A DNA stretch of 50,446 nucleotides from Candidatus Sericytochromatia bacterium (GTDB taxonomy: Bacteria > Cyanobacteriota > Sericytochromatia > S15B-MN24 > JAQBPE01), in the NCBI GenBank assembly GCA_040400605.1, contig JBBAPZ010000013.1:50289-100734 (forward strand). The letters are read 5' to 3'. Positions 6,080 to 49,737 of this stretch are shown here, piece after piece. The translations under genes and the position numbers were made by a program. The first letter of the stretch is position 1. The number at the start of each line of letters is the position of its first letter. The notes beneath the pieces were generated by a model. That model had not been told where the DNA came from. It made no database searches and saw only the letters and a program-made list of their open reading frames with translations.

Positions 6080-6137
6080 TTTATTTTCCACCGATGGTTG
6101 GGCATAATGGGCGCATCCTCCCGCGAAAGGCGTTGTC

Positions 6138-6791
6138 ATGGCTCACGATATGTCCACACTCCCGCAACTGCATCTCATCGACCACCCCTTGGCGCGCCAT
6201 GCCCTGACGGGTCTGCGCCGTAGCGACACCACCAGTGCAGTCTTTCGCACGCGCTTGCGCGAACTCGCCCGCTTTGTGGCGATCGCCGCCACCAGCGATC
6301 TCGCACTCACCCCCACCCGCATCACCACGCCGGTCACGACCATCGACACCGGCGAAACACTGGCTCATTCACTCATTATCGCCCCCGTGCTTCGCGCCGG
6401 CCTCGCCATGGCCGATGGGGTGCTGGATGTCTGCCCGGACGCGGAAGTCAGACATATTGGCCTGCACAGGGATGAAAAGACCCTGCTGCCAGCCACTTAC
6501 TACACTAACTTGCCAGAAGTCATCAATCCCACTGCCACCGTGCTCATCGTTGACCCGATGCTCGCAACCGGCGGTTCGGCCTGCGCAGCCGTGGCCTGTT
6601 TCAAACAACGCGGGGCGAAACATATTCGCTTCCTGAGCGTCATCTCAGCCCCTGAAGGTGTGTCAACACTGTCCCAGGCGCACCCGGATGTGCCCATTTA
6701 CACCATCAACGTTGACCAGTGTCTGAACGAACACGGCTTCATCGTGCCCGGACTTGGTGACGCGGGCGATCGCGCCTTCGGAACCCTCTAA
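6138..6791 (+). CDS. upp: Uracil phosphoribosyltransferase
   Basis: PVLRAGL, PRPP-binding motif VDPMLATGGS, and C-terminal GFIVPGLGDAGDRAFGT. Confidence 0.97.
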   Translation: MAHDMSTLPQLHLIDHPLARHALTGLRRSDTTSAVFRTRLRELARFVAIAATSDLALTPTRITTPVTTIDTGETLAHSLIIAPVLRAGLAMADGVLDVCPDAEVRHIGLHRDEKTLLPATYYTNLPEVINPTATVLIVDPMLATGGSACAAVACFKQRGAKHIRFLSVISAPEGVSTLSQAHPDVPIYTINVDQCLNEHGFIVPGLGDAGDRAFGTL

Positions 6792-8029: not shown

Positions 8030-8255
8030 CGGTCACCGGCGTTGGACCCCCATTCTGCGCCCTCCGGACTGTTGAGTTGGCCTGTGTTCATGGTAAATTT
8101 CATGGTGAATGAACGGTGAGACAGCGGGCCGCAGGCGGTGAGACATGGGATGCTGCGCCACCCGAAAAGGGCAAGGTAGCGTGCAAGGGCTTGCTTTCTG
8201 CGACTGGGTCGTTGTCAGGAAGCGTGTGCCGGTATCGCGTTGAAAGGGAAGTGAC

Positions 8256-10328: not shown

Positions 10329-10433
10329 CACCTTGCTGTTTGTCGCTGAAACGCCTTCACGCAGCGTGTCGGTGCTTAAATGAATGAATCCGTTGTGAGC
10401 CTTGCCACTCGGCAGCGGTTAGGTTGTTCAGTG

Positions 10434-13758: not shown

Positions 13759-13779
13759 GGCCGGGATGCGAGGCGGGCG

Positions 13780-14898: not shown

Positions 14899-14946
14899 AA
14901 ATCGTGTGCCTGATACCGCAACGCCGCTTGGAAAGGTCCGTACTTG

Positions 14947-15948
14947 ATGACGCCAGATGCGCCTTACCGTCCGCCACTCACACTGTCTCCGGCACTGTTG
15001 GCGAGTGTCGCTGCAATCGCGGAGTTGTTGGGGCGTTGGAGTGCCCGCGAGGAACGTGTTGCATCGCCCTTGCTGCGGCGTTACAACCGGATCCAGACCA
15101 TCCATGCCTCCTTGGCAATTGAACAGAACAGTCTCAGCCTCGACCAGGTGAGCGCGATTCTTGACGGCAAGCCCGTGTTCGGTCCTGTGCGCGATATTCA
15201 GGAGGTGCGCAATGCAATTGCGGCTTACGAGACACTCACCCGATGGGAGCCTTTTAACGAGACGCACCTGCTTGAGGCGCATGGCGTGATGATGGCGGGT
15301 CTGATCGATCCCCCGGGCCGCTATCGCAACGGTGGCGTGGGAATCTATCGCGGTGAACAACTCGTTCACATGGCACCGCCGGCCGGCCGGGTGCCGGTGC
15401 TTGTTGCTGATTTACTCACGTGGCTGGCCCGCACCGATTGGCATCCGTTGATCACCAGTTGCGTCGTTCATTACGAACTGGAATTCATTCACCCCTTCAC
15501 CGATGGGAATGGTCGCCTGGGCCGTCTCTGGCAGACCTTGATCCTCAGTCGCTGGAATTCATTGCTCGCGTGGTTGCCCATCGAAGAGGTAATACGCGCC
15601 CGTCAACCGGGCTACTATGACACGCTTGGACAGTCGGATCAACAAGGCGAACTCGAACCCTTTGTGACCTTCATGCTCACAGCCATCCACGATGCCCTGC
15701 AAACCGCCATCCGTCATCAAGCCAGTGCCACAACGTTGAGTTCGGAGATGGGTTCGGTGATCGGTTCGGAGATGGGTTCGGCAATCATACAGCTACTGGC
15801 GGCAGCGCCGACTTTGTCAGCGCGTCGCTTGGGCGATCGCCTCGGCATCAGCCAACGGGCCGTGGAGAAACATCTGGCAGCCCTCCAGCGCGCAGGCCGC
15901 TTGATTCGCCGTGGTTCACCACGCACCGGCTATTGGGAAGTCCAATGA
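14947..15948 (+). CDS. Fic family protein with C-terminal wHTH
   Basis: Canonical HPFTDGNGRLGR motif, N-terminal ASLAIEQN inhibitory-helix-like motif, and C-terminal HTH (ISQRAVEKHLAAL...GYWEV). Confidence 0.93.
   Translation: MTPDAPYRPPLTLSPALLASVAAIAELLGRWSAREERVASPLLRRYNRIQTIHASLAIEQNSLSLDQVSAILDGKPVFGPVRDIQEVRNAIAAYETLTRWEPFNETHLLEAHGVMMAGLIDPPGRYRNGGVGIYRGEQLVHMAPPAGRVPVLVADLLTWLARTDWHPLITSCVVHYELEFIHPFTDGNGRLGRLWQTLILSRWNSLLAWLPIEEVIRARQPGYYDTLGQSDQQGELEPFVTFMLTAIHDALQTAIRHQASATTLSSEMGSVIGSEMGSAIIQLLAAAPTLSARRLGDRLGISQRAVEKHLAALQRAGRLIRRGSPRTGYWEVQ
15740..15781 (+). repeat. 12-bp in-frame tandem repeat (3.5 copies) in the Fic-HTH linker
   Basis: GTTCGGAGATGG GTTCGGTGATCG GTTCGGAGATGG GTTCGG, encoding SEMG-SVIG-SEMG-S. 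Confidence 0.85.
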
Positions 15949-16118
15949 GTGTCCATCCCGACGCGACCTACAACCCGCCATCTCGGTCCGATCGTCGTCA
16001 ATCAGATCCCTGCACACCCCAATCACGCCGGCTGCTCCATGCTTATATCCTAAAATTTAACTGGTTTTAGCGAAACATTAAACAATGCTTTACCGATTAA
16101 CGCGGATTTGACTGGGAT

Positions 16119-16850
16119 GTGGCGGGTGTGGGGTTTGGCAGTTCGTTGGGGGGGCAACCGGTGTACGCGAATCAGATGAATGCGGCGCAACGGCCAACGA
16201 TGGTGCCTGGCGGGGTGCAACAGCCCGCGATGGGTGGGATCGGGGTACCGGGAGCGCCGGGTCCTGTGCCGCTGGGGGGCGTCCCGAATCAGGGGGGTGC
16301 GATGGGCGCTGTGGGGGTGCCGGGGCCTGTGATGATGGGGTTGGATCGGTATGTGGCGGCTGATTTTGTTGAAACGGGCCGGACGGTTGCGCACCTGTGG
16401 AACGCTGCGAAATCCGGTATTGATGGCGGTGCCGCGGTTAAGGATGCGTTTGGCACGTTGTTTCGGGGTGTGTCACGTTTAAGTCCGCGGGGGGTTGTTG
16501 CAGGCGTCAAGGGTGTTGTTGGGGCGACGTGGCCGGTGATGAAGCGGTCGGCGTTGTTTGAGGGGGTTATCTCGTTGGTGGCGAATGGTTATCGTTTGGT
16601 GACCGGGCGTTTGGGGATTCGCGAGTTTGGTGCGAATGTGGCCTCGGATTTGGTGGGTGGTTTTTTTGGTGGTTTTGGGGCTGCGATGGCTGGTGCGATC
16701 GCCTCGGCGGTGGTGCCGGGCGGGGGCTTGTTTGCCACATTCGTCGTTGGTTTGGCCGGTATCTGGGGCTACAGCACAACAGCCGGGGCGTGGCGCGGCT
16801 TGGGTTTGCGTGACCGCTTGCGCTCACTGTTCGGTGTCGCGCCGTCCTAA
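16119..16850 (+). CDS. Gly-rich hypothetical protein with glycine-zipper-like hydrophobic C-terminus
   Basis: 243-aa ORF downstream of an AT-rich promoter-like region. Gly/Pro-rich N-terminus and GGFFGGFGAAMAGAIASAVVPGGG helix. Confidence 0.7.
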   Translation: MAGVGFGSSLGGQPVYANQMNAAQRPTMVPGGVQQPAMGGIGVPGAPGPVPLGGVPNQGGAMGAVGVPGPVMMGLDRYVAADFVETGRTVAHLWNAAKSGIDGGAAVKDAFGTLFRGVSRLSPRGVVAGVKGVVGATWPVMKRSALFEGVISLVANGYRLVTGRLGIREFGANVASDLVGGFFGGFGAAMAGAIASAVVPGGGLFATFVVGLAGIWGYSTTAGAWRGLGLRDRLRSLFGVAPS

Positions 16851-18272: not shown

Positions 18273-18841
18273 TGCCACCCCTTCAATGATCGACGACGGA
18301 TTATCCGACAAAACGCCCGCATGGCACAGCACCGCTTCGTCACACAAACGCTCGCGGCCCGGGAAACGTTCCGGATGGTTTGCGCGCCAGGGAAAAGCGA
18401 TGCATAACGACAACAACGTGTCACGTACCTTTGGGTTTTCAAGCCCTGCCGCACGCCTGCAACGTCTCCATCATAACACCGCGGCACCCAGGCGCTTGAA
18501 ACAAAACCCCGACTGGCCAAGGCTTGATTCGCGGAATTGATGGTTCCCGTCCCTGATCGACCATGTATCAGATTGACGGATTGTTCGTTAAATATTCGTT
18601 GTGACCATGCCGGACGTAACACCCGACATCGGTCTGCCAACCGTTGCGTAGTGTTCTGATGGTCACCGTCCGATCGGTGAAATTGGTGGTTGGCCTTATC
18701 GATGCACCGGTTGGGTTTTATGATCACTTGGGTATACTGCCAACAAGATTGCCTAACATGATTGCAATCTCGATTTGAGATTTTTAAAAGAGTTGATCGG
18801 GTGAGCGTGTGGCCGTTCGTTGTTGAGGAGAGATTGGATCG

Positions 18842-25215: not shown

Positions 25216-25216
25216 T

Positions 25217-26077: not shown

Positions 26078-26204
26078 CACAACCCCACCAGTCAACCCCA
26101 CTTCCCCCCAACCATACCACCCACCGCCACTCACAGACGAGCACCCTCACCCAGGCAGATTAACAACGATTCAATGTCTGATAAAATTCAGTCAGCAAAT
26201 TGGA

Positions 26205-26233
26205 TTGACAGTCGAGACGGGGTTTGTTATATT
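26205..26233 (+). promoter_or_regulatory. Sigma70-type promoter of tRNA-Gly
   Basis: TTGACA (26205-26210), 17-nt spacer, TATATT (26228-26233) preceded by TGn. Confidence 0.8.
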
Positions 26234-26270
26234 AGTTTCACATTGAGCGCAGTAGTCGGTGCTCAAAAAC

Positions 26271-26342
26271 GCGGGAATAGTTCAGTGGTAGAACACCACC
26301 TTGCCAAGGTGGGGGTCGAGGGTTCGAATCCCTTTTCCCGCT
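26271..26342 (+). tRNA. tRNA-Gly (GCC)
   Basis: Acceptor stem GCGGGAA/TTCCCGC, D arm GTTC-AGTGGTA-GAAC, anticodon arm CCACC-TTGCCAA-GGTGG, T loop GTTCGAATC. CCA is not directly encoded. Confidence 0.97.
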
Positions 26343-26354
26343 CTCCAAAATTTG

Positions 26355-26389
26355 AAGAGACGCTGCAGGTTTTGCGGCGTCTTTTTTTT
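26355..26389 (+). terminator. Rho-independent terminator after tRNA-Gly
   Basis: Hairpin AGACGCTGCA-GGTTT-TGCGGCGTCT followed by a T tract. Confidence 0.85.
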
Positions 26390-26555
26390 GTGGGGATTGC
26401 GTGATGGTTGGCAAATTGTGCCCATCGTTTGTTTAAAATTAAACTTTTCATAATGATTTAAACGCAACATTTGCCACTGTATGGCCGATATGACGATAGG
26501 GTTGGCAGTTGTTCCTGAAACAAGGTGGTTTGCAGTGAGGGAAGGAGTATCCACG

Positions 26556-27542: not shown

Positions 27543-27552
27543 GGATCCGGTG

Positions 27553-28956
27553 ATGCGCGGCGTTTCGATTGGGATGACAGCTTTGGTGATACTGGGTGCC
27601 TGCTTGCTCACCGCGTGCGGGCGTCGTGAATACGCGAATTTGCCTGAGTCGACAGTGCCCAAGGCGTCTGGGGTGGGGACGGTCGTGGTGAGTGTGGTCG
27701 ACCCTTCGGCCAAGCCGTTGTCGGGGGCTAGGGTCGCGTTGCGCAAGGCGAACGGTGAAGCGGTCGGTGAGGCCTTGATGACCGATACCAAAGGGCTTGT
27801 CACGCTGAAAGCACCGCTTGGCGGGAGTTATGAGCTGTCCGTGCAGCATGGCGGTTTATCCGCATTTCGCTCCGGCATCGCGTTGGATTCCGAAGCACCG
27901 GCGCAGGTGTCGGTCACGTTGGTGCCACCTGAGACGCCGAAGGCGTCGATTGCCGGCACGGTGATGGACGGGGTGTCGGCCAAGCCCCTTGATGGTGCGA
28001 CAGTGTCGGTCTTGGGCACCCAAAACACGGTGAAGGCTGGCCCTGATGGGTCGTTTTTGCTCAAGGATGTGGCCGTGGGCAACCCGGTGCTGGTGTTTTC
28101 GTTCAAGGGCTTTTTAGAGACGCGACGCAGTTTGGTCGTACGGCCGGGACAGCTCGAACGACTGGATCTCAAACTCTACGCGAGCGGTAACGCCTCGCGC
28201 ATTGGCCACACCCTGGTGGCGTCTCAAGGTGGTGTGCATGAGGTTGATCGCGCAGGCCGTACCGTTTGGCACTTGCGAACCGGTGCCTTCCAGGCCCGCA
28301 TGCTGCCTGGTGGCAATGCACTGTTGTCTGGAACGCAAGGTGTCGTGGAAGTAAACACCGCACGCACGGTCGTGTGGAGTTACAAACCTCTGAGCCTCGG
28401 CGTGTTGAGTGATCCGCAGGCCATTTGGCGCACCAGCACGGGCAACACGTGGATCGCCGACACCGGCAACAACCGTGTCATCGAAGTCAGCACGACCCAA
28501 CGCCTGCAACGGGTCCTCAAAGCCAGCTTGTCTCGTCCCATGTCGGTTGAGCGGCTCGAAGCCACCGCCTCGACCTTGATCGCTGACACCGGCAATCACC
28601 GCGTGATTGAAGTGGCGGATGACGGCCGCATACTCTGGAGCCTGGGCGACGGAACCCCAACCCTGCTCAACCACCCCACCAGTGCGAGTCGCCTGCCCAA
28701 CGGCAACACCCTCATCGCGGATAGCGGGAACCACCGTGTCATGGAGGTCAACCGGACCCTCCAACTGGTGTGGATGTACGGCGGCGCTGGCGATCGCACC
28801 ACCTGCTACCTCCCGAACGCCGCCTCCCGTCTCCCCAACGGCAACACCCTCATCGCCGACACCGGCAACGACCGCGTCCTCGAAATCAGCCCCAAAGCCA
28901 CCGTCACCTGGCAATACGAGGGCGTCCCCCAACCCCTGTTCGTCGAACGCCTCTAG
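27553..28956 (+). CDS. Lipoprotein with carboxypeptidase-regulatory-like domains and NHL-like beta-propeller
   Basis: Lipobox LLTAC; two KPL(S/D)GA.V beta-sandwich units; repeated (LPN)GNTLIADTGNHRVIEV motif. Confidence 0.8.
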   Translation: MRGVSIGMTALVILGACLLTACGRREYANLPESTVPKASGVGTVVVSVVDPSAKPLSGARVALRKANGEAVGEALMTDTKGLVTLKAPLGGSYELSVQHGGLSAFRSGIALDSEAPAQVSVTLVPPETPKASIAGTVMDGVSAKPLDGATVSVLGTQNTVKAGPDGSFLLKDVAVGNPVLVFSFKGFLETRRSLVVRPGQLERLDLKLYASGNASRIGHTLVASQGGVHEVDRAGRTVWHLRTGAFQARMLPGGNALLSGTQGVVEVNTARTVVWSYKPLSLGVLSDPQAIWRTSTGNTWIADTGNNRVIEVSTTQRLQRVLKASLSRPMSVERLEATASTLIADTGNHRVIEVADDGRILWSLGDGTPTLLNHPTSASRLPNGNTLIADSGNHRVMEVNRTLQLVWMYGGAGDRTTCYLPNAASRLPNGNTLIADTGNDRVLEISPKATVTWQYEGVPQPLFVERL

Positions 28957-29045
28957 ACCAACGGTTGTACCGCGTTTCAAGCGGGAGCCAGGTCTATTGA
29001 GGGAGGCTGCATCGTTTTAAACAAAAAAAAATTTCACCGCAGCAC

Positions 29046-29074
29046 TTGAAATTAAGGTTAAGTAAAGGTAAATT
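29046..29074 (+). promoter_or_regulatory. Sigma70-type promoter upstream of the GH13 gene
   Basis: TTGAAA, 17-nt spacer, TAAATT in an AT-rich island. Confidence 0.5.
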
Positions 29075-29214
29075 TTAGAATATATTTCAGTATGCCTGCC
29101 GATGACGCTGGCTATCTGGTCGTCTTGATCCGGTGGCGATTGTTTGGGCGCGTGTCGCCTGGTTCCATTCACTGACTCAGGTGTTGCCGTTTGACGTTTA
29201 GGGAGGGTGTTTGG

Positions 29215-30783
29215 GTGTCAACTTTGGCCTGTCGTTTGGGGGGTTTGGGTGTATGCCTGGCGCTTTTGGCGGGATGTGCGCAGCTGGGTGCCGGGGCGTT
29301 CGGGGTGCGGCCGGGGGTGTCGTCTGTGTCTGCTCGGGCGGGGGGTGGAACGACTTTTACGCCGCGTTGGGTTAAAGATGCGGTGTTTTATCAGATTTTC
29401 CCGGAGCGTTTTGAGAATGGTGATCGTGGCAATGATCCGCCCAAGGCGTTGCCGTGGGGTGGCAAGCCTGAGAACTTCAATTATTTCGGTGGTGATTTGG
29501 CGGGTGTGATGCGGCGTTTGCCGTATTTGCGTTCGCTTGGGGTGAATGCGATTTATTTAAATCCGATTTTCAAGGCGTCTTCCAACCACAAGTATAATAC
29601 GGCGGATTACATGCAGATCGATCCAGCCTTCGGAACGAACCAGTTGTTCCGGGAGTTGTTGTCAAAGGCGCACGGGATGGGCATTCGGGTCATTTTGGAT
29701 GGGGTGTTCAATCATACGGGGGATGATCACCTGTTTTTCCAGGATGCGGTGCAAAAAGGTGACAAGAGTCCCTATTGGGATTTTTACACCATTTGGGGTT
29801 ATCCGGTGGTGACGGAGCCGCGTCCGAATTATAACGCCTGGTGGGGCTTTGGCACGTTGCCACAGTTGCGTGCCGCAAGCAACCGCAAGGTCCAGGAGTA
29901 TTTGTTTGATGTCACGGAGTACTGGACGCGTCAAGGAATTGATGGTTGGCGGCTGGATGTTCCGAATGAGATCGACAACCGGGATTTTTGGCGTGAGTGG
30001 CGCAAGCGGGTGCGTGCGATCAATCCCCAGGCTTATATTGTCGGTGAGATTTGGGACGATGGGTCATCCTGGTTGCAAGGCGACCAATTTGACGCGGTGA
30101 TGAACTACATTTATCGGGAGATTTTGTTGGACTTTTTCGCGAAGCAGTCGATCAGCGTCGATGACTTCGATGCCCGTTTGACGGCGCTACGTAACCGTTA
30201 CGGCCAGGAAGTGACCGAGGCGGGGTTCAACATCCTGGGCAGCCATGATGTCCCGCGTTTGCGGACCGAGGCCCGTGGCAGCGCTGAAAAGGCCCGCGAA
30301 GCCATGTTCTTCCAGTTCATTTCACCCGGCGCGCCACTCATTTACTACGGCGATGAGCTTGGCATGGAAGGGGCCAAAGACCCGGACAACCGGCGAACGA
30401 TGCCTTGGGAAGTGCTGGCGCGTGGTGGCGTGGCATCAGCTGAAGCACAACTGTCCTACGTGCAGCAGTTGATTGCTATTCGTCGGGCGCACCCGGCACT
30501 CCGTGCCTTTAACACCCGGACCTTGATGCGTCACAATCACCATCGGCTCTACGCCTCCATCCGGCAAGCCACGGATGAAAAACTCATTGTGGGCTTCAAC
30601 AGCGGCGATGAGGACCGCGACGTGACCTTCTCCGTCCTCAACGAATTCCCCGACAATACAAGCTTCATCGATGCCTTCTCCAAGCGGCGCGTCACGGTTC
30701 AAGGCGGCACGCTCACCTTGCCCAAACAAGCTGCTCACACAGGCTTCATCCTCATTCCCCAAAAAGCGGGTCGCAGCCGCTAA
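29215..30783 (+). CDS. GH13 alpha-amylase family (neopullulanase/cyclomaltodextrinase-like) lipoprotein
   Basis: FYQIFPERF, DGVFNH, GWRLDVPNE (Asp), IVGEIW (Glu), LGSHDVPR (Asp) and YYGDELG; lipobox LLAGC; GGGAGG RBS before GTG. Confidence 0.92.
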   Translation: MSTLACRLGGLGVCLALLAGCAQLGAGAFGVRPGVSSVSARAGGGTTFTPRWVKDAVFYQIFPERFENGDRGNDPPKALPWGGKPENFNYFGGDLAGVMRRLPYLRSLGVNAIYLNPIFKASSNHKYNTADYMQIDPAFGTNQLFRELLSKAHGMGIRVILDGVFNHTGDDHLFFQDAVQKGDKSPYWDFYTIWGYPVVTEPRPNYNAWWGFGTLPQLRAASNRKVQEYLFDVTEYWTRQGIDGWRLDVPNEIDNRDFWREWRKRVRAINPQAYIVGEIWDDGSSWLQGDQFDAVMNYIYREILLDFFAKQSISVDDFDARLTALRNRYGQEVTEAGFNILGSHDVPRLRTEARGSAEKAREAMFFQFISPGAPLIYYGDELGMEGAKDPDNRRTMPWEVLARGGVASAEAQLSYVQQLIAIRRAHPALRAFNTRTLMRHNHHRLYASIRQATDEKLIVGFNSGDEDRDVTFSVLNEFPDNTSFIDAFSKRRVTVQGGTLTLPKQAAHTGFILIPQKAGRSR

Positions 30784-30859
30784 CGCACCAATCACGCCCC
30801 GGGCGCCAGGCTACACGAGGCGTCATACCCCAAGGCCGAAAACCCAACGGTCCTGCCGT

Positions 30860-30900
30860 CACGCCCCGCCCCTCGCTGTTGATGCAAGGGGCGGGGCGTG
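30860..30900. terminator. Strong GC hairpin (terminator-like) after the GH13 gene
   Basis: Perfect 14-bp inverted repeat CACGCCCCGCCCCT/AGGGGCGGGGCGTG; no T tract. Confidence 0.5.
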
Positions 30901-31133
30901 CGATTGCAGCCCTGTGCGGGAACAAGCACCCGCCTGCACCATCACGCCGTCATCGCTTGACGCAACGCTTCGCGTTCAAAACGTGTGCGGCAAATTCAAA
31001 AACCTCAGGCGCGGTCGTGCTGTTGTTCAACAACAGCTGAACAGTGAACACGAATCAATCATGTTTTGTCACGCCGGTCGGCAGCCCTGCCGACTGATAT
31101 GCCAGCCCCTATGATCCGTTTATGATTAGAGTT

Positions 31134-31160
31134 TGTACAATTTGTATACAGAATTGTACA
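31134..31160. promoter_or_regulatory. Tripartite palindromic operator candidate
   Basis: TGTACAATT-TGTATACA-G-AATTGTACA, just upstream of a TATGAT -10-like hexamer. Confidence 0.65.
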
Positions 31161-31331
31161 GGTATGATACAGTAGCGCTCACGGTAAAGGTTGCCTGTTT
31201 GGTCGATGCTGGTAGGTCGTTTTGGGCACGACTTGCAGTTTTCTTCTTGGTCGCAGGACTCCTTGGAACGCAATGCAGCGGCGCAGTGACGTGCGCGGAA
31301 AGGACGGACCGAAGTGGCGGAGGGAGCAAGA

Positions 31332-32153: not shown

Positions 32154-32270
32154 ACGTCAAGTCAGCCTCAGCTTATGTTCGCTGGGTGAGTGCGTGGGGT
32201 TTGAGCGGTGTTCAGTGAGAACGGTGTACAGGTTGCGGGTGTCGCGCTTCCGGTCCGGAGGACTTGAGGC

Positions 32271-32660
32271 GTGGCATCTGTTTTGTTGGCTGAGGATAAC
32301 CCGGATACCGTTGATTTTTTGTCAAGACGCTTGAGCGAGGCGGGTTTTGATGTGTTGGTGGCGCGCAACGGGGCGGATGCGTTCGCTTTGGCGTTGCGGG
32401 AAAAGCCGGATGCGATCGTTATCGATGTCAACCTGCCGCGGGTGGCGGGGGATGAGGTGATTCGCCGGTTGCGTGCCGAGGCTGCGCTGGGTGTCACGCC
32501 GGTCATTTTCGTGACGGCGGATTACACGACTCGCGTGGCCCAGAGTTTGGTGCCGGGGCAGGTGTTGTGCATGGAGAAAGCGATTCGCGCGCGCGCGTTA
32601 ATTGAAAACCTGCAGGGCTTGCTGGCGTCGCAAGGGCGTGGTGGCGCGCGTCCCGGCTGA
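32271..32660 (+). CDS. Single-domain response regulator (CheY-like receiver)
   Basis: VLLAEDN, IVIDVNLP (phospho-Asp), IFVTA and conserved Lys. Confidence 0.88.
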   Translation: MASVLLAEDNPDTVDFLSRRLSEAGFDVLVARNGADAFALALREKPDAIVIDVNLPRVAGDEVIRRLRAEAALGVTPVIFVTADYTTRVAQSLVPGQVLCMEKAIRARALIENLQGLLASQGRGGARPG

Positions 32661-32710
32661 GTGATTCATGATACGATGGACGCGCTGTGCTGGATTGGGA
32701 GCGGAGTCGC

Positions 32711-33958: not shown

Positions 33959-36900
33959 ATGGCAGAAGCGTTAAGAGAAATCAGTAATCGCTATCGCACC
34001 CTGGCCACCCTGGGAGAGGGCGGAATGGGTGTTGTCTATCTCGTTGAGGATACGACTACGCAGCGTCAGGTTGCCTTGAAGGTTTTGTCGAGCCAGCTTG
34101 CGCGTGACGAGCGGGTGTTGCAGGGGTTCAAGCAAGAGTTTCGTATGATGTCGAAACTGAAGCATCCCAATAATTGCGAAGCATATGACTATGGCGCGAT
34201 GCCGGATGGCACCCCTTATTTCACGATGGAAGTGGTTCCGGGACAGGGTCTGGATGAAGCGTTGCCGCTCGGCACCGAGGTGATGAACAGTGTTTTGAGC
34301 CAGGTTTGTTTGACGCTGGCATTTATTCATCAGCAGGGCTTTGTGCACTGTGATCTCAAGCCCGAAAACATTCGCATCAAGCCGGATGGCACGGTCAAAT
34401 TGATGGATTTCGGGCTGATGGAGGTGAGCGGTCAGTCCGGTGGCGCGATCAAAGGCACCTTGGCGTATTTGGCGCCGGAAGTGGCCAAACGCGATCGCAT
34501 CGACCAACGCTCCGACATCTACTCGCTGGGCGCCGTGGCCTATCAGTTGTTGACCGGACAAACGCCGTTTCGCGGTTCGACGCCGGTTGAGGTGTTGCGC
34601 GCGCACCTGAATGAAACGCCGCGTCCTTTGCGTCAGATTGACAAGGCGATACCGGTTGCGATGGAGCAGGTTGTCCTGAAGATGCTGGCCAAGGAGCCAA
34701 TCGCCCGCTATCAGTCGTGCTATGACGTCTTGTCGTCCTTGGGCATTGAAGTCGATGATCGTGGCGCAGCCATGTTGTTGGCACCGGCCTTTGTGGGCCG
34801 GCATCCGGAAATGGCCCGGTTGGGTTCGGCGCTGGAACGGTTGAAAGACCCTTCGTCATCGGATTCACGCGGTGGTGCTTTGTGGATCGCTGGTCCCGGC
34901 GGCGTGGGCAAGACACGCTTGCTGGGTGAATTTCGTTTTGCGGCACAATTGGCGGAAGTTCCGTTTTATTTGGGGACCTGTTCGGCACAGCGGGCACCCT
35001 ATGAACCGTTCGTGGAGGTTTTGCGGCAGTTGTTGCCGGTGATGCGCGAGCGTTGTCAGACATTGTTGACGGAACATGCGGGGCTTTTGGGTAAACTGTT
35101 GCCCGAACTCGGTGATGGGTCGCTGGCGCCGTTGCTGGAACCGGATCAAGAAAAAGTGCTGTTACAGTCGTTGGTGACCAATCTGGTGATACGGGCCACG
35201 GAAGCGACGGGCGCGGTGCTGGTGTTGGAAGCGTGGGACCTGGCGGACAGCTTGAGTCAAGAGATGTTGACCTACCTGATGCGTAACGCCGAGAGTGCGC
35301 CGTTGTTGCTTGTTGTCAGTTCCCGCGATGCGTCGCTTGCGAAGGCGCCAGTTGTCTTGACTTTGTCCGCGTTGGACCAGGCGGAGACGTCTGCTGTGGT
35401 TGCCAGTATGTTGGGTCTGGAGCGTATTGATGATGCGCTGGCGCAGCAGGTGTTTGAGTTGAGTGCGGGCAACGGGCAGTTGATCGGGGATTTGCTGGAT
35501 CATTTGTTGCGGGTGGGGGCCTTTGAACGTGCGCAGGGGCGCTGGACGCTGCCCCGCGTGATTGATGCTGCTCATATACCAAAGGACTTGAAGGCGACTT
35601 GGGTTGAACGACTTTCGACGCTGCCGGAACGTGCGCAGCGGGTTGCCGAGTTTGCGGCGGTTTTCGGAGAGCCATTTGGGCTGGGCCTGGCAGCCGCTGT
35701 GCTGTCTTTGGGTGATGATGCCTTGTTTGATGCGTTGGAAGCGCTCATGCGGGCAAACGTGCTGGATGGTTCGGATGGTCTGTATGCGTTTGCCAATCAG
35801 GATCTTGGGGCGACGTTGTATGAAACGCTCGAAGAGGTGCTCAAGCGTTCGTTGCACGATGCCGTGACGGATTATCTGGCAGGTTTGACGCCGGATGACG
35901 AACGCACCGTGACAGAGTGGACGCGCTTGGCGCGGCAGGCTTTGCGGGGTTCTGATGCGGATCGCGCGATTCGGTTGGCGCTCAAGGCGGGAGAACTGAA
36001 CCGTAGCTTCGTGGCCACCGCCGCGGCGCAGATGCTGCTCAATGAGGGTTATGCCTTGTTGATGGCCAAGCAACGCGCGGGTGTGGATATGCGTCCATGG
36101 CTGCAAACGTGGTGTGAGTATACCAACCACCTGGCGGGCGTGGCGATTTATACGCACAACCTGGATGAGTGTGCGGAATACCTGGAAAAAGGCCTTGCGT
36201 TGGCGGGCGAGTTGGGAGATAAGAATCTTGAGGCGCAGTTGCTGGCGACGAAGGCGCGTTTGCGCGATTCGTCGTTTACCTCCGAAGGAATGGAAGAGGC
36301 GGCACTGATCAGCCAACGGGTCATTGAACTGGCGACCGAAACCGGCAATATCCGCTTGCAAACCCGTACCTTGGTCAATTTGGCACGACAGATGTTTTTC
36401 CGCGGGCTGAACACGCAGGCACAGGACTTGTTCCAACAGGCTGTCGATATTGCAAAAGCGCATGACGTCACATTCTATTATGCGCGGGCATTGTGCTTTT
36501 TGGGTTTCCTCAAGTTCTCGGCGGGCGGTGCAACCCGGGACGAGGGTTATCGAGATCTGTTTCAGGCAATTGATCTTCAATTGCGGATCGGCGACAAATA
36601 CGGCGAGGGCTATTCGTATATGTTGTTGAACAATGTGCAGCAACAGACCGGTCGTTTCACGGAGGCCGTTGAATCCACTAATCGTTATTACGAGATTGTG
36701 ACCGAGTTGGGTGTCAACGATGACCGGGCCGTAGCGTTACTCAACCGCTTGTTTGCATACTTTGAAATGGGTCAGTTCGAGCGTGTCATTGAATTGGCAC
36801 AGGGCTGTCACGACTTTGGTGTGGAAGTGTCGCATGGGCAAGTTGTGCCGGTGAGCTTGACGGTGTGGGCGTGTGCCGCCTACTACACCGGCCAGTCGAC

Positions 36901-39505
36901 GCTCGGCGATACGCTCCTGGCTCGCGGAGAGGAGTTGGCCAGGCAAAGCAGCAGCTACACCTTGTCGTATGTGGTGCCTTACCTCATTGAGGCGCGGCTT
37001 CACGCCGGGCGTTTGCAAGAGGCTTTGATAGCCGCCCAGGAAGCGCGCGATCTCGTGGCTTCTCAAGGCAACACGGAGATTGAGTCCAAACTGTGGGTGT
37101 ATCTCGGTGAAATTCACACACGGCAGGGTGAGTATCCGGCGGCGCGCAGTTACTTCCAGCGTAGCCGCGAGCACGCGCTACGGGCGGATGAGCCGCATCA
37201 CGAAGCGCGGGCCTCCAAAGGCCTTGGCGTGATTGATTTGCTTGATGGGCAATTTGACAGTGCCGAAGCGCATTTGAATCGGGCGCTGTCACTGAGTAAA
37301 CGTTTGTCGATGGCTTGTTTGACGGCGGATGTGCTGTATCAGTTGGGGCGATTGTCCTTGGCGCGTCAGGACAAACCGCAGGCGCGGGGCTATTTCGACG
37401 AGGCCTTGGACCAGGCCGTAGAACTGCGGGTCCCGGCGCTTGAAGCGGTGGTGCTGCATGGTTTGTCTCAGGCGGTATCCAAAAAAGAGGAACAAAAGCG
37501 CTTTGCCGAGTCGGCACGGGCCAGGTTGAATGCGCTTTTGACGGATATGACTGAAGAGCTAAAAACCGCCTTTTTGTCATTCACCGAACGGGCACAGATC
37601 ATGCGTGAGGATGTCGTTGAAGTGGCGACGTTTGGCACGACTTTGACCGCTGTTGTGCCGGAACAGCCCTCATTGTCGGAAGATGCGTCGGTTGACGAGC
37701 GCGTGGCGTGGTTGCGGCAGGAAATGGCGCTGACTGCGCAGGTCGCGGCGCAGGCCGCGGCGCGGGCGGCTGCGGTGACAAGGGAGTATGAGGCGCTGAC
37801 CGAGCGGGTTGCGATCGACCACCCCCGTGTGCGAGAACTTGAGCTGGCAAATCGGCGTATGGAACAATTGATCAAGTTTTCGACGGCGCTGAGCAAAATT
37901 CAGGATCTTGGACGCATTCTTGAAGATGCCGTGGATATGATTGTCGAGCTGACCGGTGCTGAGCGAGGTTTCTTGCTGTTCCTGGAAAATGGTCAGATCC
38001 GCTCGCAAGTGAGCCGTGTGAACGTGGATCGCCACAGCCCGATGGACTGGCAGTTTTCGAAGTCGATTGCCGATCAGGTTCTAAGCACCGGCGAAGTGGT
38101 CTGCGTCTTTGATGCACTGGCCGACCATCAGTTCAATCAGGCGCAATCCGTGGTTGACCTCAACTTGCGCACCGTGATTTGTGTGCCCATGAAAGTGAAC
38201 GGGCGCTTGGTTGGGGCAATCTACGTCGACCGTCAGTCAGTCACGGACAGTTTCACGCCAAACGACCTCGAAATGGTGTTGAGCCTGGCCGCTCAAGCCG
38301 CGGGCGCCATCGAAAACGCACGCCTGCATCAGGAGTGGGTGGACAAGAGCAAGCGCCTCGAAATGCTCAACAATTTGTCCAAGACGATTTCGGGCTCCCT
38401 TGAGATGGAAGAGGTGCTCGATCTCATCGTTAAAATGACCCTTGAAGTCTCGCGGGCGGAACGCGGCTTTTTGTTCCTGCTCGGTGACGATCAAAGCGGG
38501 TTGATCTGCCGGGCGGCTCGCGACACATCCGGCAGTTTGCCACTGGATGCTGATCACGAGATTGCGCAATCGATCTGCACCAAGGTCCTGACAACCGGCG
38601 AACCCGAAAACGTCGCCGACGCCCTGAATGATGAGGAGTTCCAGTTCCAGCAGTCGATCATGGCCCTGAACCTCAGAATGGTCATGTGCGTACCCATCAC
38701 CAACAAGGGGACCGTCATTGGCTTGCTTTACGTCGATTCACAGGCCGTCGTCAATGCCTTCGGTGACAAAGACCTCGAGTTGCTGCTATCTATCGCCGGT
38801 CACGCCGCCGTGGCGATCGACAACGCCAAATTGCACGCCAAAACAGCCCGCCTCGCTGACGACCTCCAAAAAATGTTCTACAGCTTCGTGCAGGCACTCG
38901 GCACCTCGATTGACGCCAAGCACCCGCTCACATCCGGTCACTCGTGGCGCGTCACCGAATACAGCGTGCGCCTCGCGCGACGAATCGGCCTGCCACCATC
39001 GGAGGTCGAGAATATCCGGATTGCCGGCCTGTTGCACGACGTCGGCAAGATTGGCACGCCTGACCACATCTTGATGAAGCCGGGCTCATTCACCAACGAG
39101 GAATACGAGACCATGAAACGACATGTGGTCCACACCAAGGAAATCCTCGACACCATTTACTTCCCTGAAAGCCAACGACACATCCCGGCCGTGGCTGGCG
39201 CCCACCACGAGAAGTGGGACGGCAAAGGCTATCCCAACCGACAGGCCGGCGAGGAAATTCCCTTGGGCGGTCGCATTTTGGCCCTCGGCGACGTTTTCGA
39301 TGCGATCACCTCGAAACGTGATTACCGCGAAGCCATGCCGCTGTCGCAAGCCCTGAACATCATCCGCCAAGGCATCGGCACCCATTTCGACCCGGCTTTG
39401 GGGCCCGTGTTCATTGAGATGATCGAAGAAGAAGGCATTGTCTATCACGAGAACGACCTTGAAACTGGCGCGCCAAAGCCCCAGTCCTCGGATGCGATCG
39501 CCTGA
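33959..39505 (+). CDS. Multidomain signalling protein: Ser/Thr kinase - STAND/AAA ATPase - TPR - GAF - GAF - HD-GYP
   Basis: Kinase motifs LGEGGMGVVY, HCDLKPEN, DFG and APE; Walker A GPGGVGKT; helical TPR-like region; two GAF units (AERGFL...CVP...G.IYVD); LLHDVGK and HHEKWDGKGYP. Confidence 0.92.
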   Translation: MAEALREISNRYRTLATLGEGGMGVVYLVEDTTTQRQVALKVLSSQLARDERVLQGFKQEFRMMSKLKHPNNCEAYDYGAMPDGTPYFTMEVVPGQGLDEALPLGTEVMNSVLSQVCLTLAFIHQQGFVHCDLKPENIRIKPDGTVKLMDFGLMEVSGQSGGAIKGTLAYLAPEVAKRDRIDQRSDIYSLGAVAYQLLTGQTPFRGSTPVEVLRAHLNETPRPLRQIDKAIPVAMEQVVLKMLAKEPIARYQSCYDVLSSLGIEVDDRGAAMLLAPAFVGRHPEMARLGSALERLKDPSSSDSRGGALWIAGPGGVGKTRLLGEFRFAAQLAEVPFYLGTCSAQRAPYEPFVEVLRQLLPVMRERCQTLLTEHAGLLGKLLPELGDGSLAPLLEPDQEKVLLQSLVTNLVIRATEATGAVLVLEAWDLADSLSQEMLTYLMRNAESAPLLLVVSSRDASLAKAPVVLTLSALDQAETSAVVASMLGLERIDDALAQQVFELSAGNGQLIGDLLDHLLRVGAFERAQGRWTLPRVIDAAHIPKDLKATWVERLSTLPERAQRVAEFAAVFGEPFGLGLAAAVLSLGDDALFDALEALMRANVLDGSDGLYAFANQDLGATLYETLEEVLKRSLHDAVTDYLAGLTPDDERTVTEWTRLARQALRGSDADRAIRLALKAGELNRSFVATAAAQMLLNEGYALLMAKQRAGVDMRPWLQTWCEYTNHLAGVAIYTHNLDECAEYLEKGLALAGELGDKNLEAQLLATKARLRDSSFTSEGMEEAALISQRVIELATETGNIRLQTRTLVNLARQMFFRGLNTQAQDLFQQAVDIAKAHDVTFYYARALCFLGFLKFSAGGATRDEGYRDLFQAIDLQLRIGDKYGEGYSYMLLNNVQQQTGRFTEAVESTNRYYEIVTELGVNDDRAVALLNRLFAYFEMGQFERVIELAQGCHDFGVEVSHGQVVPVSLTVWACAAYYTGQSTLGDTLLARGEELARQSSSYTLSYVVPYLIEARLHAGRLQEALIAAQEARDLVASQGNTEIESKLWVYLGEIHTRQGEYPAARSYFQRSREHALRADEPHHEARASKGLGVIDLLDGQFDSAEAHLNRALSLSKRLSMACLTADVLYQLGRLSLARQDKPQARGYFDEALDQAVELRVPALEAVVLHGLSQAVSKKEEQKRFAESARARLNALLTDMTEELKTAFLSFTERAQIMREDVVEVATFGTTLTAVVPEQPSLSEDASVDERVAWLRQEMALTAQVAAQAAARAAAVTREYEALTERVAIDHPRVRELELANRRMEQLIKFSTALSKIQDLGRILEDAVDMIVELTGAERGFLLFLENGQIRSQVSRVNVDRHSPMDWQFSKSIADQVLSTGEVVCVFDALADHQFNQAQSVVDLNLRTVICVPMKVNGRLVGAIYVDRQSVTDSFTPNDLEMVLSLAAQAAGAIENARLHQEWVDKSKRLEMLNNLSKTISGSLEMEEVLDLIVKMTLEVSRAERGFLFLLGDDQSGLICRAARDTSGSLPLDADHEIAQSICTKVLTTGEPENVADALNDEEFQFQQSIMALNLRMVMCVPITNKGTVIGLLYVDSQAVVNAFGDKDLELLLSIAGHAAVAIDNAKLHAKTARLADDLQKMFYSFVQALGTSIDAKHPLTSGHSWRVTEYSVRLARRIGLPPSEVENIRIAGLLHDVGKIGTPDHILMKPGSFTNEEYETMKRHVVHTKEILDTIYFPESQRHIPAVAGAHHEKWDGKGYPNRQAGEEIPLGGRILALGDVFDAITSKRDYREAMPLSQALNIIRQGIGTHFDPALGPVFIEMIEEEGIVYHENDLETGAPKPQSSDAIA

Positions 39506-39597
39506 CACGCCCTACCATCTGCGATAACCTGGCGCGCCCACAACGGCGCGCCATTTCCTTTGCCGGCGCAGCATGACCTGGTACAGCACTTGCCCGT

Positions 39598-39641
39598 GCG
39601 ATGATTAAAGCCCATAATCATCGCATGATTTGCGATGATTA
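39598..39641. promoter_or_regulatory. Triple 10-bp operator overlapping the Fic start codon
   Basis: GCGATGATTA (39598-39607), inverted copy TAATCATCGC (39615-39624) and GCGATGATTA (39632-39641), each separated by 7 nt. Confidence 0.75.
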
Positions 39642-41487: not shown

Positions 41488-41668
41488 GTTGTTATTATCG
41501 CTGCCAAGTGCCTGAAACTTGTTTGGGATTTGATGCGAAATCGATTTTTATTGTGTTAAATGTTTGATAAAACCTTTTAAAACGGCACAAGCACGTGGGA
41601 ATTCCCGGGGATAGAGTGGCCGGGCGCGGTCGTTGGGAATGGCTGCCTTCAATTAGGAGGACCGGCTT

Positions 41669-46574: not shown

Positions 46575-46932
46575 CAAAGCGTTTCCTCCCCCACCCAAGC
46601 GGCACAAATCCGCACCAATTGTACCCGAATCCACCAGTTTACACAGCCAGGCAGCGCACACCCCGCGCCGCAAGTACCTTGTGCCTGCAAATACCCCGAC
46701 ACGCTTGCGCATCAAGCAGCGCAGAAACCCCAGTCAATCTGTGATTGTTTAAGCGGGTTATAAGACGTGATCAAAGCCCAAGGTTAATGCCTTAAAACTG
46801 GGCTAAGCCCGTGTTTTGACCCTTAAAAATGCTTGCAAGCCTTCGTTTGACCCACTATTTTAGCTGTCACGGATTACCGCGTTTTTATGACGGGCTGGCT
46901 GTTTGGCCAGGGTACTGCGACTGTGGGGGCTC

Positions 46933-49437
46933 ATGCGGCAAGTTAAACGTCTGTGGGTATTGGGTGTCGGGGTGCCAGTGCTGCTTGCGGCGTGTGCGCC
47001 GGCTGGAATTGGGGTTGGTCCCGCGCAACGGGTGCCGCAGGCGTTGCGAGACGATGCACGCGTGGAGGCTTCGAAGGGCGTATCTGCCTCGATGCTGGAT
47101 GCTTTGGCGGCCGATGTACCAAATCAGCCGTCACTCGCGCTCAGTGGAACGGTGCGGATTCCTGTACGGTGGGCAGGTGGTGGCATTGTTGGCAACAATG
47201 GTGGGTCGTTGATTGGCCACGGTGGTGGCCATCTGATTGGCAACAACACGGCGTCGGTGGTGTCGCACAATGGTGGCACGGTGACGCAAGGCAGCTGGGG
47301 TACAGAAGTGCCTTTGGCCTTTGCGACGGTGTCGTTGCGGGATGCAACCGGTGCGGTTTTGCAAGATGCCGAGGGGCGGCCGATGGTGACACAGACGGAT
47401 GCGGCGGGGCGTTACGGCTTTGCGGTGTTACCGGCTGGGGCCCACGTGGTTGTGACGGTGCAGGTGCCCGAGCAGTCGCAGCCCTTGCAGGCGTTTGTGG
47501 CGCGCGATCGCACCGGGGTTGAACGCGGCGTTGACCTCATCAGCACCCTCGTCATGACCTATTTGCAAGCGCGGTTCATCAACGGTTCGCAAGCCGTGTT
47601 TGACAAGCTGGATCCGTTGTTGGTGGAGCAGGCCCAAGACTGGCTGGTGGCGGCGCTTGTGCGTGATGGCGGGGCGCTGCCCGATACCTTGAGCGAGGCG
47701 AGTCTGGTTGCGTGGGTTGACCGTTTGCGGGCGGGTGATTCCAATGCCCAGACAATCTATGAACAGGTGCGCGCGCGCCTGGTGGTTGTGGGCGGGGTTG
47801 CTGCGATGCAGGGACGCGACTGCCTCGATTGGCGCCTCGATGAGGCCACCGCCCTCGTACGCCTCCCCGATGGCGCCTACTATATCTTTGAACGCCCCAA
47901 GCATCTCTTGTGGCATATAACAGCCGCCGGGCAGGTGCGTTTGGCGTTGGCGGGTCCGCAGTGGGGCTATGCCGGGCAAACGGCACCGGCTGAGGTGGCG
48001 CATTATCCGTCTGGCATGGTGGTGGATGCCACAGGCAATGTGTACGTGGCGGATACATGGAACCATCGCGTGGTGCGTTACCATCCCGAGCGTGGTGTGC
48101 AGGTGGTTGCGGGGGATGGTGGCGTGGAGGGGGTGCGATCGCTGCACTACCCCACGGGTCTTGCGTTGGGCGCAACGGGTGGTTTGCTGGTTTCTGACAC
48201 GCGAAATGGGCGCGTCGTGAAGGTGTCGGCGGATGGGGCCATGGCTGCTTTGTCTCTGCAGGGGGTCTCTACACTGGCGGAGCCGATGGGTATGGTTGCG
48301 GCGGGCGCTGGGTCGTGGTTGGTGGTGGAGCACGGGCGGGATCGGGTGTTGCGGGTGAGTGCCGATGGTGTGGTGCGGGTGCTGGAAGGGGCAGCCGTTG
48401 CGCAGCCGACCGTGATTGCGCGGCGTGGTGCGGGTGATTATGGAATATTGTCGGGCCGATCGCATCGGGTGTGGCGCTATCAAGGGGGGCAGTTGACTCC
48501 TTGGTCGTTGCCGGGTGTGGGTCAGCCTGTGTCGCTGGCGGCGGATGGGGGTGAACTATATGTAGGGGCAGCGGGGGTGTGGCGTGTGGGGGTCGCGCCT
48601 GAGCGGGTATTGGGGGCGACGCCTGAGCGTTTGCGTGCGGCTGGGGCGTTGCTGGATGCGCGTTCGCTCACGGTAAATAATGATGGGCGCTTGTTGATCG
48701 CGGATGCAGGTGGGCATGCGGTATTGGCGTATCGCGAGGGACAGGTGAGCCTGTATGCGGGCACAGGGGCGCCGGGTGGGGTTGAGCAGGGCGATCGCCT
48801 GAATGTGGCGGTTGCGGCGCCACAGGGTGTGGGCGTGGATGGCTCTGGGCAGGTATGGGTGTTGACGGGTGGGGCGCGACCGGGGGTTTTGCGGATCACC
48901 ACGGCGGGGCAGGCGTCTCGTGTGGCTGATGGGGCGCCCGGCGCGTCGCGGGATTGGGTGGTGTGGCCGGGTGCGCTTGGGGCGTGGTTGGCGCCTGATG
49001 CGGCGGGCATTCGGGTGTTGGGTGAGGATGGGGTGCGTGTTGAAACGGTAGCTGTGCCGGGTGTGCGGAAGTTGGGGGAGTTGCCGGGGGGTGGTCACTG
49101 GGTGCAGACGGCTGGTGAGTTGCGGGAGTGGGGTGGGAGTCGGGTGTGGTTGCGCGCGGAGGCGATCGCCCCTTGGTTTGCGTGGGATCGGATCCGCACG
49201 ATTCGTTTTGTGACCAAGACGCGGTGTTTTGTTGCGAGCGCGAACAGCATCGTGCAGGTGGAGGACGGTCGCGTCACCGCGGTTGCGGGTCACCACACCC
49301 TTTTGTTGAACGGGCAAGAACCGGATAGCGGCTTGTTTGATATCCAGGATTTGGCGTGGGTGGGTGCGCAGGGCCTGTATGTGCTGGAGCGCACGCAACT
49401 CAAATTGATCCCCACGGCGATGCTGCCCGGAACGTGA
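46933..49437 (+). CDS. Large lipoprotein with Gly/Asn octapeptide repeats, beta-sandwich domain and NHL beta-propeller
   Basis: Lipobox LLAAC; GIVGNNGG-SLIGHGGG-HLIGNNTA-SVVSHNGG repeats; TQTDAAGRY; NHL repeats such as YPSGMVVDATGNVYVADTWNHRV. Confidence 0.8.
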   Translation: MRQVKRLWVLGVGVPVLLAACAPAGIGVGPAQRVPQALRDDARVEASKGVSASMLDALAADVPNQPSLALSGTVRIPVRWAGGGIVGNNGGSLIGHGGGHLIGNNTASVVSHNGGTVTQGSWGTEVPLAFATVSLRDATGAVLQDAEGRPMVTQTDAAGRYGFAVLPAGAHVVVTVQVPEQSQPLQAFVARDRTGVERGVDLISTLVMTYLQARFINGSQAVFDKLDPLLVEQAQDWLVAALVRDGGALPDTLSEASLVAWVDRLRAGDSNAQTIYEQVRARLVVVGGVAAMQGRDCLDWRLDEATALVRLPDGAYYIFERPKHLLWHITAAGQVRLALAGPQWGYAGQTAPAEVAHYPSGMVVDATGNVYVADTWNHRVVRYHPERGVQVVAGDGGVEGVRSLHYPTGLALGATGGLLVSDTRNGRVVKVSADGAMAALSLQGVSTLAEPMGMVAAGAGSWLVVEHGRDRVLRVSADGVVRVLEGAAVAQPTVIARRGAGDYGILSGRSHRVWRYQGGQLTPWSLPGVGQPVSLAADGGELYVGAAGVWRVGVAPERVLGATPERLRAAGALLDARSLTVNNDGRLLIADAGGHAVLAYREGQVSLYAGTGAPGGVEQGDRLNVAVAAPQGVGVDGSGQVWVLTGGARPGVLRITTAGQASRVADGAPGASRDWVVWPGALGAWLAPDAAGIRVLGEDGVRVETVAVPGVRKLGELPGGGHWVQTAGELREWGGSRVWLRAEAIAPWFAWDRIRTIRFVTKTRCFVASANSIVQVEDGRVTAVAGHHTLLLNGQEPDSGLFDIQDLAWVGAQGLYVLERTQLKLIPTAMLPGT

Positions 49438-49737
49438 GCGCGGCTGCGGCGTGTGCGAACTCTCACATGGTGGATGTGACGCCGCGCACACTGCACGGGA
49501 TGTGATGGGTGTTATAACTGCATCGTGACGCTTCTGGTTCAGGTGATCCGGAGCATCGGTGGTTCCCGGGGACGGCCCGCGCAGGGTTGACAGTTCTGAA
49601 TGAGCCAGCTTACCATTTAAATATTCGTGGCAATTTTCGTTAAAATTTGGTTTCCGTAACACTGACGACGAGGCCCGAGTCCTGGTCCGATGTGAAGCAG
49701 TCGTCCCACACACATTCGAAAAGAGGAAAGAACAGCA

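Follow-up and report, generated by a model that had tools for sequence, protein, structure and literature searches.

Strand skew in bacterial genomes is commonly read as a signal of replication, and its transcription-linked term is usually ascribed to selection. The closest match to the pattern described here comes from mammals, where, in the accessible part of the source, genes with CpG-island promoters show a promoter-local strand asymmetry (PMC2927911). The present analysis concerns a sawtooth-like strand skew in a window of 50,446 nucleotides (the whole stretch analysed), which corresponds to positions 50289-100734 of contig JBBAPZ010000013.1 (C13) in the genome of Candidatus Sericytochromatia bacterium (GCA_040400605.1, here G000). 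The strand that leads away from promoter-like gaps is depleted in C and enriched in G and T, by about 0.3 on each side and in either gene direction at fourfold-degenerate sites, and intergenic DNA carries skew of the same sign. The sawtooth is real and genome-wide. A sequence-only reading of the window had proposed a strand-asymmetric process that starts at many promoter-like sites, on both sides and under any gene direction, and the genome as a whole bears this out.

The assembly comprises 3.71 Mb in 174 contigs, with a completeness of 94.6% and a contamination of 4.9%. The organism is probably Sericytochromatia-like, a non-photosynthetic sister of cyanobacteria, and the three runs holding at least half of its words are freshwater or subsurface metagenomes; the shares in runs X9-X14 are small. 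The named RuvB homologues nearest to that of G000 belong to 'Cyanobacteria bacterium RYN_339' (72%) and 'Candidatus Sericytochromatia bacterium' (69%), followed by cyanobacteria at about 60%, and two scans at the RuvB locus recovered no close relatives. A self-trained script called 3285 genes (83% coding). Skew was scored at fourfold sites as G+T versus A+C, with the coding-strand mean of each codon family subtracted. A jump is the score over the 700 bp right of a site minus that over the 700 bp left of it (standard deviation (SD) across gaps genome-wide: 0.24). The effect persists at these corrected sites, which excludes amino-acid content as its cause, as the sequence-only reading had supposed.

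Genome-wide, the jump statistic has an SD of 0.203, compared with 0.139 in shuffled data. There are 115 upward and 66 downward jumps above 0.6 (shuffled: 0) and 59 versus 22 above 0.7, and the up-jumps are sharper than the down-jumps. A gap longer than 80 bp lies within 300 bp of 77% of the 115 up-jumps and of 30% of 1312 random sites; an AT-rich gap is near 43% and 7%, respectively. Down-jumps are not enriched (29% near intergenic gaps, 3% near AT-rich gaps). At 52 co-oriented gaps with a minimum GC below 0.25, the upstream gene end scores -0.11 and the downstream start +0.145, and permutation within gap-length classes (125 gaps) gave p values of 0.008 upstream and <0.0002 downstream. The sign change falls at the best sense -10 element (180 co-oriented gaps). 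AT-richness scales with the jump in co-oriented and divergent gaps, and has no effect in 228 convergent gaps (rho -0.02). The claim that the polarity switches at AT-rich sites therefore stands as a genome-wide enrichment, not as a rule: the gaps at 8.1 and 46.8 kb of the window reach a minimum 60-bp GC of just 0.47 and 0.38. Visual inspection of the 45 top gaps revealed no motif common to the switch points, and no repeat marks them: repeat-bearing gaps make up 23% of high-jump gaps and 21% of all gaps.

The skew is the sum of three terms, namely a local promoter-centred term, a gene-direction term, and a weak long-range term. At patches more than 8 kb from the next, the local term has an amplitude of 0.32 and a decay of 0.52 kb over genes reading away, and 0.31 and 1.09 kb over genes reading toward the patch; its decay is thus longer in the untranslated direction. 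It is two-sided at every level of background polarity, and a one-sided fork-block model is rejected because both sides shift at every such level. The gene-direction term amounts to +0.09 (GC) and +0.22 (TA) on the coding strand. Over the last kilobase before convergent junctions it fades to -0.04 (GC) and +0.145 (TA), near the value of the relative G005. The reported independence from gene direction applies to the local term, which rides on this gene-direction-linked plateau. The long-range term is about 0.1-0.2 on C5, C7, C13, C15, and C17 and about 0 on C1, C2, and C4; in the autocovariance, its plateau is 0.003 versus 0.031 at 250 bp. Replichore skew from a single oriC covers this weak plateau alone and fails as a full account.

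In the window, the four hand counts of the sequence-only reading were exact (C32/G9 at 28801-28860, C10/G26/T21/A3 at 29221-29280, C31/G7 at 26101-26160, and C13/G29 at 26641-26700), and the jump is positive at all eight sites that it named. The contig is among the strongest of the genome, with about 10 jumps per 100 kb compared with 1-2 on C1 and C4. Window genes were named via Pfam (40 open reading frames scanned), and tRNA was the sole match in an Rfam scan. The features are as follows.

8030..8255, no strand: switch site between the co-oriented cinA and GH57 genes; jump 0.59; minimum GC 0.47, not AT-rich
15949..16160, no strand: switch site between a co-oriented fic gene and unassigned open reading frame; jump 0.60; AT-rich patch at ~16067
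18417..18841, no strand: divergent gap between an RNA methyltransferase gene and a response regulator-kinase operon; jump 0.40
26135..26555, no strand: divergent gap containing tRNA-Gly(GCC) at 26271-26343 (+); jump 0.84
28957..29214, no strand: switch site between two + genes (NHL/carboxypeptidase-regulatory protein and GH13); jump 0.89, the window maximum; AT-rich patch at ~29068
30784..31331, no strand: switch site between the co-oriented GH13 and HTH genes; jump 0.55
39506..39624, no strand: weaker switch 3' of the kinase gene; jump 0.31; minimum GC 0.42, not AT-rich
41488..41668, no strand: divergent gap; jump 0.31; AT-rich patch at ~41557
46575..46902, no strand: divergent gap between an FtsA/PilM-like gene and an NHL protein gene; jump 0.76; minimum GC 0.38
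5386..6137, no strand: divergent gap, a counter-example with an inverted jump of -0.60
27553..28956, + strand: gene over one tooth; fourfold sites G32/C23 (first quarter) and G14/C54 (last quarter)
29215..30783, + strand: GH13 gene over one tooth; fourfold sites G32/C5/T23/A4 (first quarter) and G16/C33 (last quarter)
33959..39505, + strand: kinase-GAF-HD gene; G>C plateau for five sixths, then G38/C87 in the last sixth

Codon drift along single co-oriented genes, as originally reported, is present in the GH13 gene and the 27.5-kb gene. The kinase gene does not drift: G exceeds C for five sixths of its length and the flip is confined to the last sixth, which is C-rich because of the weaker switch at 39506..39624. 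Left of 8030..8255, the reversed skew reaches back about 2 kb through upp-cinA. A near-consensus sigma70-type promoter was read by eye at ~26205-26233 in the gap that holds the tRNA-Gly gene. Mis-assembly as the source of the sawtooth is ruled out, since contigs of independent runs bridge the switch points: a single X4 contig covers 18667-34398 at about 5% divergence, and X3 contigs cover 26104-28958 and 29465-32751.

Several side observations concern the same window. A 127-bp intergenic repeat at 18567-18693, inside the gap 18417..18841, folds into a long hairpin and has no Rfam match; a BLAST search of the genome gave 39 hits at identities of 69-100%, and the repeat resembles a small mobile or REP-like element. 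It was rejected as a switch marker, as the mean jump is just 0.14 over the 34 of 39 hits that lie in gaps. At 25140-25484 (the end of a cyanophycinase-like gene and rsmI), X3 carries alleles of the X4/X5 type, that is, of the 5%-diverged strains, and is near-identical to the window elsewhere; this tract is a probable recombination patch between lineages. The fic-HTH gene at 14942-16019, which adjoins the 16.07-kb switch on its left, is swapped for 23 letters in the X4 strain and is a recent gain or loss. Strain-difference sites number 1054. At 1291-5385, lemA lies between two DUF3137 genes on the minus strand, with little skew.

The polarity of the skew follows the direction of transcription units. 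At 237 convergent junctions more than 2.5 kb from any patch, the coding-strand skew drops by 0.11 in the last 200 bp and has recovered by 1-1.5 kb. In 62 convergent pairs of a long gene run (at least 6 kb) and a short one (at most 2.5 kb), the zero crossing lies at the junction, not at the midpoint, and the long run stays at +0.05 to +0.16 until 200 bp from the junction. The tRNA loci (29 of 35 with data on both sides) score +0.181 [0.112, 0.242] downstream and -0.062 [-0.131, 0.010] upstream; the confidence interval of the sum, 0.024-0.216, excludes zero. Genes downstream of a tRNA gene and facing it reach +0.242 (10 loci), and the tRNA-Gly locus of the window is two-sided. In a 17-kb ribosomal-protein operon, all but one of the first 18 one-kb bins are positive, and ACG, GCG, TCG, and CCG are enriched. 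Stretches of single polarity extend over 68-200 kb on C5, C7, and C17.

Among the genomes sampled, the sawtooth is peculiar to G000 and faint in G005. Comparison DNA came from 12 of 20 relatives (60-400 kb each), and 86 of 160 outgroup loci were long enough to use. The patch-centred statistic was 0.085, 0.116, and 0.153 in three subsets of G000 and 0.026 [0.010, 0.045] in G005, compared with -0.056 to +0.034 in the other 11 relatives and a mean of 0.003 over the outgroup loci; the 11 have a GC content of 64-72%, compared with 56% in G000 and G005, a difference that may dampen the statistic, and related genomes are not independent samples. In 20-kb pieces of G000, 83% of 145 were positive. At co-oriented gaps, the reversal on the upstream side measures -0.060 in G000 (288 gaps, from the subsets), compared with +0.001 in G005 (66) and -0.003 in the others (388). 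At convergent junctions, GC skew at the 3' end changes by -0.123 in G000 and -0.042 in G005; MutL-intact relatives give +0.014 when Rho-less and +0.075 when Rho-bearing. G005 has an ordinary long-range gradient, from +0.1 to -0.1 over 400 kb. In G009 (60 kb, third-position GC 0.66), genes may still be miscalled. Within G000, the 36-kb contig C27 stands apart, its coding strands being rich in A (TA residual as low as -0.89), and is likely a foreign island or contaminant.

Two absences stand out in the gene content of G000. Rho was found in none of the eight genomes of its family (G000-G007) and in 7 of the 13 others; within one order it is patchy, being undetected in 5 of 6 f4 genomes and present in 5 of 6 f3 genomes. 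Rho loss alone was rejected as the cause, because Rho-less relatives with intact MutL lack the footprint. The N-terminal domain of MutL is present in all 21 genomes and the C-terminal endonuclease domain (MutL_C) in 19, the two without it being G000 and G005. The MutL of G000 (C12:53037-54704) is encoded at the syntenic locus, adjoining an HhH-GPD gene, and in most cases MutL models match residues 1-340. Over these residues it shares 50-55% identity with relatives, compared with 21-24% in the C-terminus, where two intact relatives share 52%. It lacks the metal-binding motifs DQHxSHER, ACH, and CPHGRP of three relatives, and the MutL of G005 (also on its C12) ends early and is truncated. These endonuclease motifs are required for mismatch repair in MutH-less systems, and MutH was found in none of five genomes searched. 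G000 thus appears to be devoid of both Rho and working mismatch repair.

Other losses were rejected as the cause. RNase HI, Mfd, MutS, EndoV, RecG, DnaB, HU, and a Y-family polymerase are all found in G000. For uracil glycosylases, family 4 is patchy (4 of 21 genomes), and G000 carries one protein of the wider family, the only one found, which judging by a motif looks SMUG1-like (positions 408-1208 of locus L328 on C3). A full dnaA was not found in G000, and it is present in 15 of 20 relatives. It is missing because its gene block, with dnaN, recF, and yidC (which flank dnaA in G005), is unassembled; groES-groEL, which adjoin dnaA in G003 and G007, are located close to the end of C17. The absence was therefore rejected as evidence for multi-origin replication.

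On the away strand, fourfold sites shift from 0.30 to 0.22 for C, from 0.37 to 0.42 for G, and from 0.20 to 0.24 for T, with A slightly down and GC content flat. The depletion of C, -0.17 to -0.47 log2, is seen whatever the 5' or 3' neighbour, without a dinucleotide context. Ultraviolet damage with transcription-coupled repair, or a deaminase, is ruled out, since the loss of C is not concentrated at dipyrimidines or in any other context. Among nine toy equilibrium models, which are indicative only, the best combines C-to-T and C-to-G changes with reciprocal protection of the other strand.

The most likely account, with a probability of roughly 0.58, is that the skew is a neutral mutational footprint of net RNA polymerase traffic, unmasked by the loss of mismatch repair. 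Any strand would lose C and gain G and T where it serves as the non-template strand, and balanced transcription in both directions would cancel the skew. Strong AT-rich promoters would fire both ways; bidirectional promoters are common, according to the accessible portion of one study (PMC12825309). Without Rho, untranslated divergent and read-through RNAs might extend for about 0.5-1 kb and re-anneal as R-loops, which would expose the displaced strand. Antisense R-loops are promoted by Rho loss in other bacteria, as stated in the available text (PMC11551753). Such a process would yield the promoter-centred term (about 0.3 on each side), the smaller gene-body plateau, the fade to zero at convergent gene ends, and the stronger signal downstream of tRNA genes. 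With the MutL endonuclease lost, lesions or errors would persist, so that the footprint would become visible in G000 and faintly so in G005. From the mechanisms listed in the sequence-only reading, divergent transcription or R-loops fits best, and dispersed bidirectional replication initiation is disfavoured. End resection, also listed there, fares poorly: with deamination of the leftover strand it should produce the opposite polarity.

A number of points weigh against a transcriptional footprint or limit the case for it. The MutL link involves two related genomes, and the effect in G005 is a quarter of that in G000. RNase HI, Mfd, MutS, RecG, EndoV, and the SMUG1-like glycosylase are retained. 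C-to-T change alone was the worst fit among the toy models. Expression predicts the GC part poorly: the genes presumed from motifs or by eye to be groEL, atpA, atpD, and rpsB score -0.09, -0.04, +0.01, and -0.10, and a presumed flagellar operon, named in the same way, scores about +0.2 to +0.5 across the greater part of 15 kb. The 9 tRNA loci of a 1.32-Mb subset gave a two-sided picture, with -0.141 on the upstream side. At C10:50000-72000 a single polarity persists across genes in both directions, five antisense genes in a row among them, and the divergent gap at 5386..6137 is inverted, with upp-cinA C-rich from its start. The terminator-blocking test comprised 7-12 cases with wide intervals. 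An antisense promoter score (t -2.75) was rejected as circular, because block-shuffled sequence reproduces the effect (t -2.37), and in the sole RNA run a share of 0.07 of the words is present, in contig form only. In mismatch repair-defective E. coli, replication accounts for the strand bias, with a small contribution from transcription, in the parts of the reports available (10.1101/346874, PMC8510543). In a survey of 1,550 prokaryotes, the sense strands favour C, which the accessible text reads as selection (PMC4844684).

It is possible, though doubtful, that R-loops at promoters instead prime short, mostly abortive DNA synthesis, whose polymerase errors are fixed because mismatch repair is dead. 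Transcription would set place and direction, synthesis would proceed by Pol I or PriA-type restart, as in ColE1 priming or stable DNA replication, and the new strand would act as a local leading strand. The polarity is indeed that of leading-strand bias, which is strongest in mismatch repair-defective E. coli, as far as the available text goes (10.1101/346874), and flat fourfold GC with C down and G up amounts to a redistribution between strands. This explanation also suits a fixed tract length of about 1 kb and some single-polarity domains of 10-20 kb, and it would account for the MutL link directly, better than net polymerase traffic does. However, G000 retains RNase HI and RecG, both suppressors of such priming, simpler models fit at least as well as a replication-like transition model, and skews of 0.3-0.6 would probably need very frequent events. 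The two explanations share their geometry and are inseparable by sequence alone. Single-polarity domains of 15-20 kb were observed at C10:50000-72000 and C15:35900-50700; the former is not accounted for by the 1-kb local term. A bolder version, which we consider rather improbable, holds that promoter R-loops routinely prime bidirectional DNA synthesis. Copying or re-copying of a large share of the chromosome would then begin at hundreds of starts defined by transcription, and oriC would be reduced to a weak residual polarity. If true, a free-living bacterium would naturally live by transcription-primed replication. An undescribed mode of chromosome maintenance, as first suggested, is not needed to account for the sawtooth.

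Three further explanations fit worse than either polymerase traffic or R-loop priming. Dispersed bidirectional origins at AT-rich gaps, with forks meeting between them, would resemble mammalian skew domains, or the multi-origin replication of cyanobacteria, on a kilobase scale, and are unlikely. Up-jumps are symmetric on the two sides of a site whatever the gene strand, add to a background of either polarity, and are sharper than down-jumps, long-range skew is weak (about 0 on C1, C2, and C4), and some cyanobacteria use multiple origins without DnaA, in the accessible part of the source (PMC7198777). Nevertheless, the decay is not proportional to spacing (0.68 kb with the next patch 3-8 kb away versus 0.87 kb with the next beyond 8 kb), the skew is zero at convergent junctions and not at midpoints, tRNA promoters act mainly downstream, and one polarity is held over 68-200 kb on C5, C7, and C17. 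The missing dnaA is an assembly gap in a group where most relatives have the full gene, and a 1-kb decay would imply that origins fire thousands of times in each round. Slightly less credible still is selection that acts through synonymous sites on the properties of DNA or RNA close to promoters (C-rich RNA toward the promoter as insulation, or mRNA 5' structure): it would suit the centring on promoters and a slight GC-only excess at gene ends, but T/A moves in step with G/C, intergenic DNA has the same sign, 11 relatives with similar genes lack the effect, and Rho, the reader of C-rich RNA for which utilisation sites might be selected, was found in 0 of 8 family genomes. Equally improbable are transcription-independent repair tracts from nicks at easily melted AT-rich patches with error-prone 5'-to-3' extension, which would predict the polarity, symmetry, fixed tract length, and scaling with AT-richness in co-oriented and divergent gaps, but not its lack of effect in convergent gaps, the plateau, the junction zero, or the tRNA asymmetry, and for which no candidate nickase was identified.

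Should the footprint of polymerase traffic be correct, promoter positions and antisense or read-through transcription would be readable from sequence in an uncultured organism, and codon usage would be set by distance from the promoter. Skew-based origin prediction would fail for such genomes, and the two-factor rule (no Rho and no MutL endonuclease) could be screened across genome collections. No published description was found of a bacterial genome with a two-sided, kilobase-scale skew centred on promoters, most subscription journals lying outside the search.

G000 shares with replichore skew at oriC the excess of G over C and T over A on the away strand, together with a weak long-range term of about 0.1-0.2 on several contigs; it differs in its more than 100 switch points, its 1-kb decay, and its tie to transcription units. 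Synechocystis and Nostoc, which belong to the same phylum-level group and replicate from multiple origins independently of DnaA, resemble it in weak global skew and the lack of Rho. However, their global skew is irregular, the available part of the source describes no promoter-centred kilobase teeth, and the relatives of G000 keep dnaA (PMC7198777). The prokaryote-wide transcription skew at fourfold sites likewise comprises a gene-direction term with sense-strand T>A, but in those genomes sense strands lean to C and position is no factor, whereas in G000 they lean to G, in a manner that depends on distance and is reversed upstream of promoters; as far as can be judged from the accessible text, the per-genome tables may include other genomes with G-leaning sense strands (PMC4844684). 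In Rho-deficient bacteria, unchecked untranslated antisense RNA exposes the non-template strand, as proposed here; the accessible text concerns acute toxicity under Rho inhibition, whereas G000 would carry an evolutionary footprint in a naturally Rho-less lineage (PMC11551753). In G000, a position-dependent, transcription-polarised and apparently mutational term dominates the genome and mirrors mammalian CpG-island promoters. Compared with those genes, as the available part of the source presents them (PMC2927911), the host is bacterial, the centres are AT-rich gaps of sigma70 type, and the effect reaches inside protein-coding genes and dominates raw composition.

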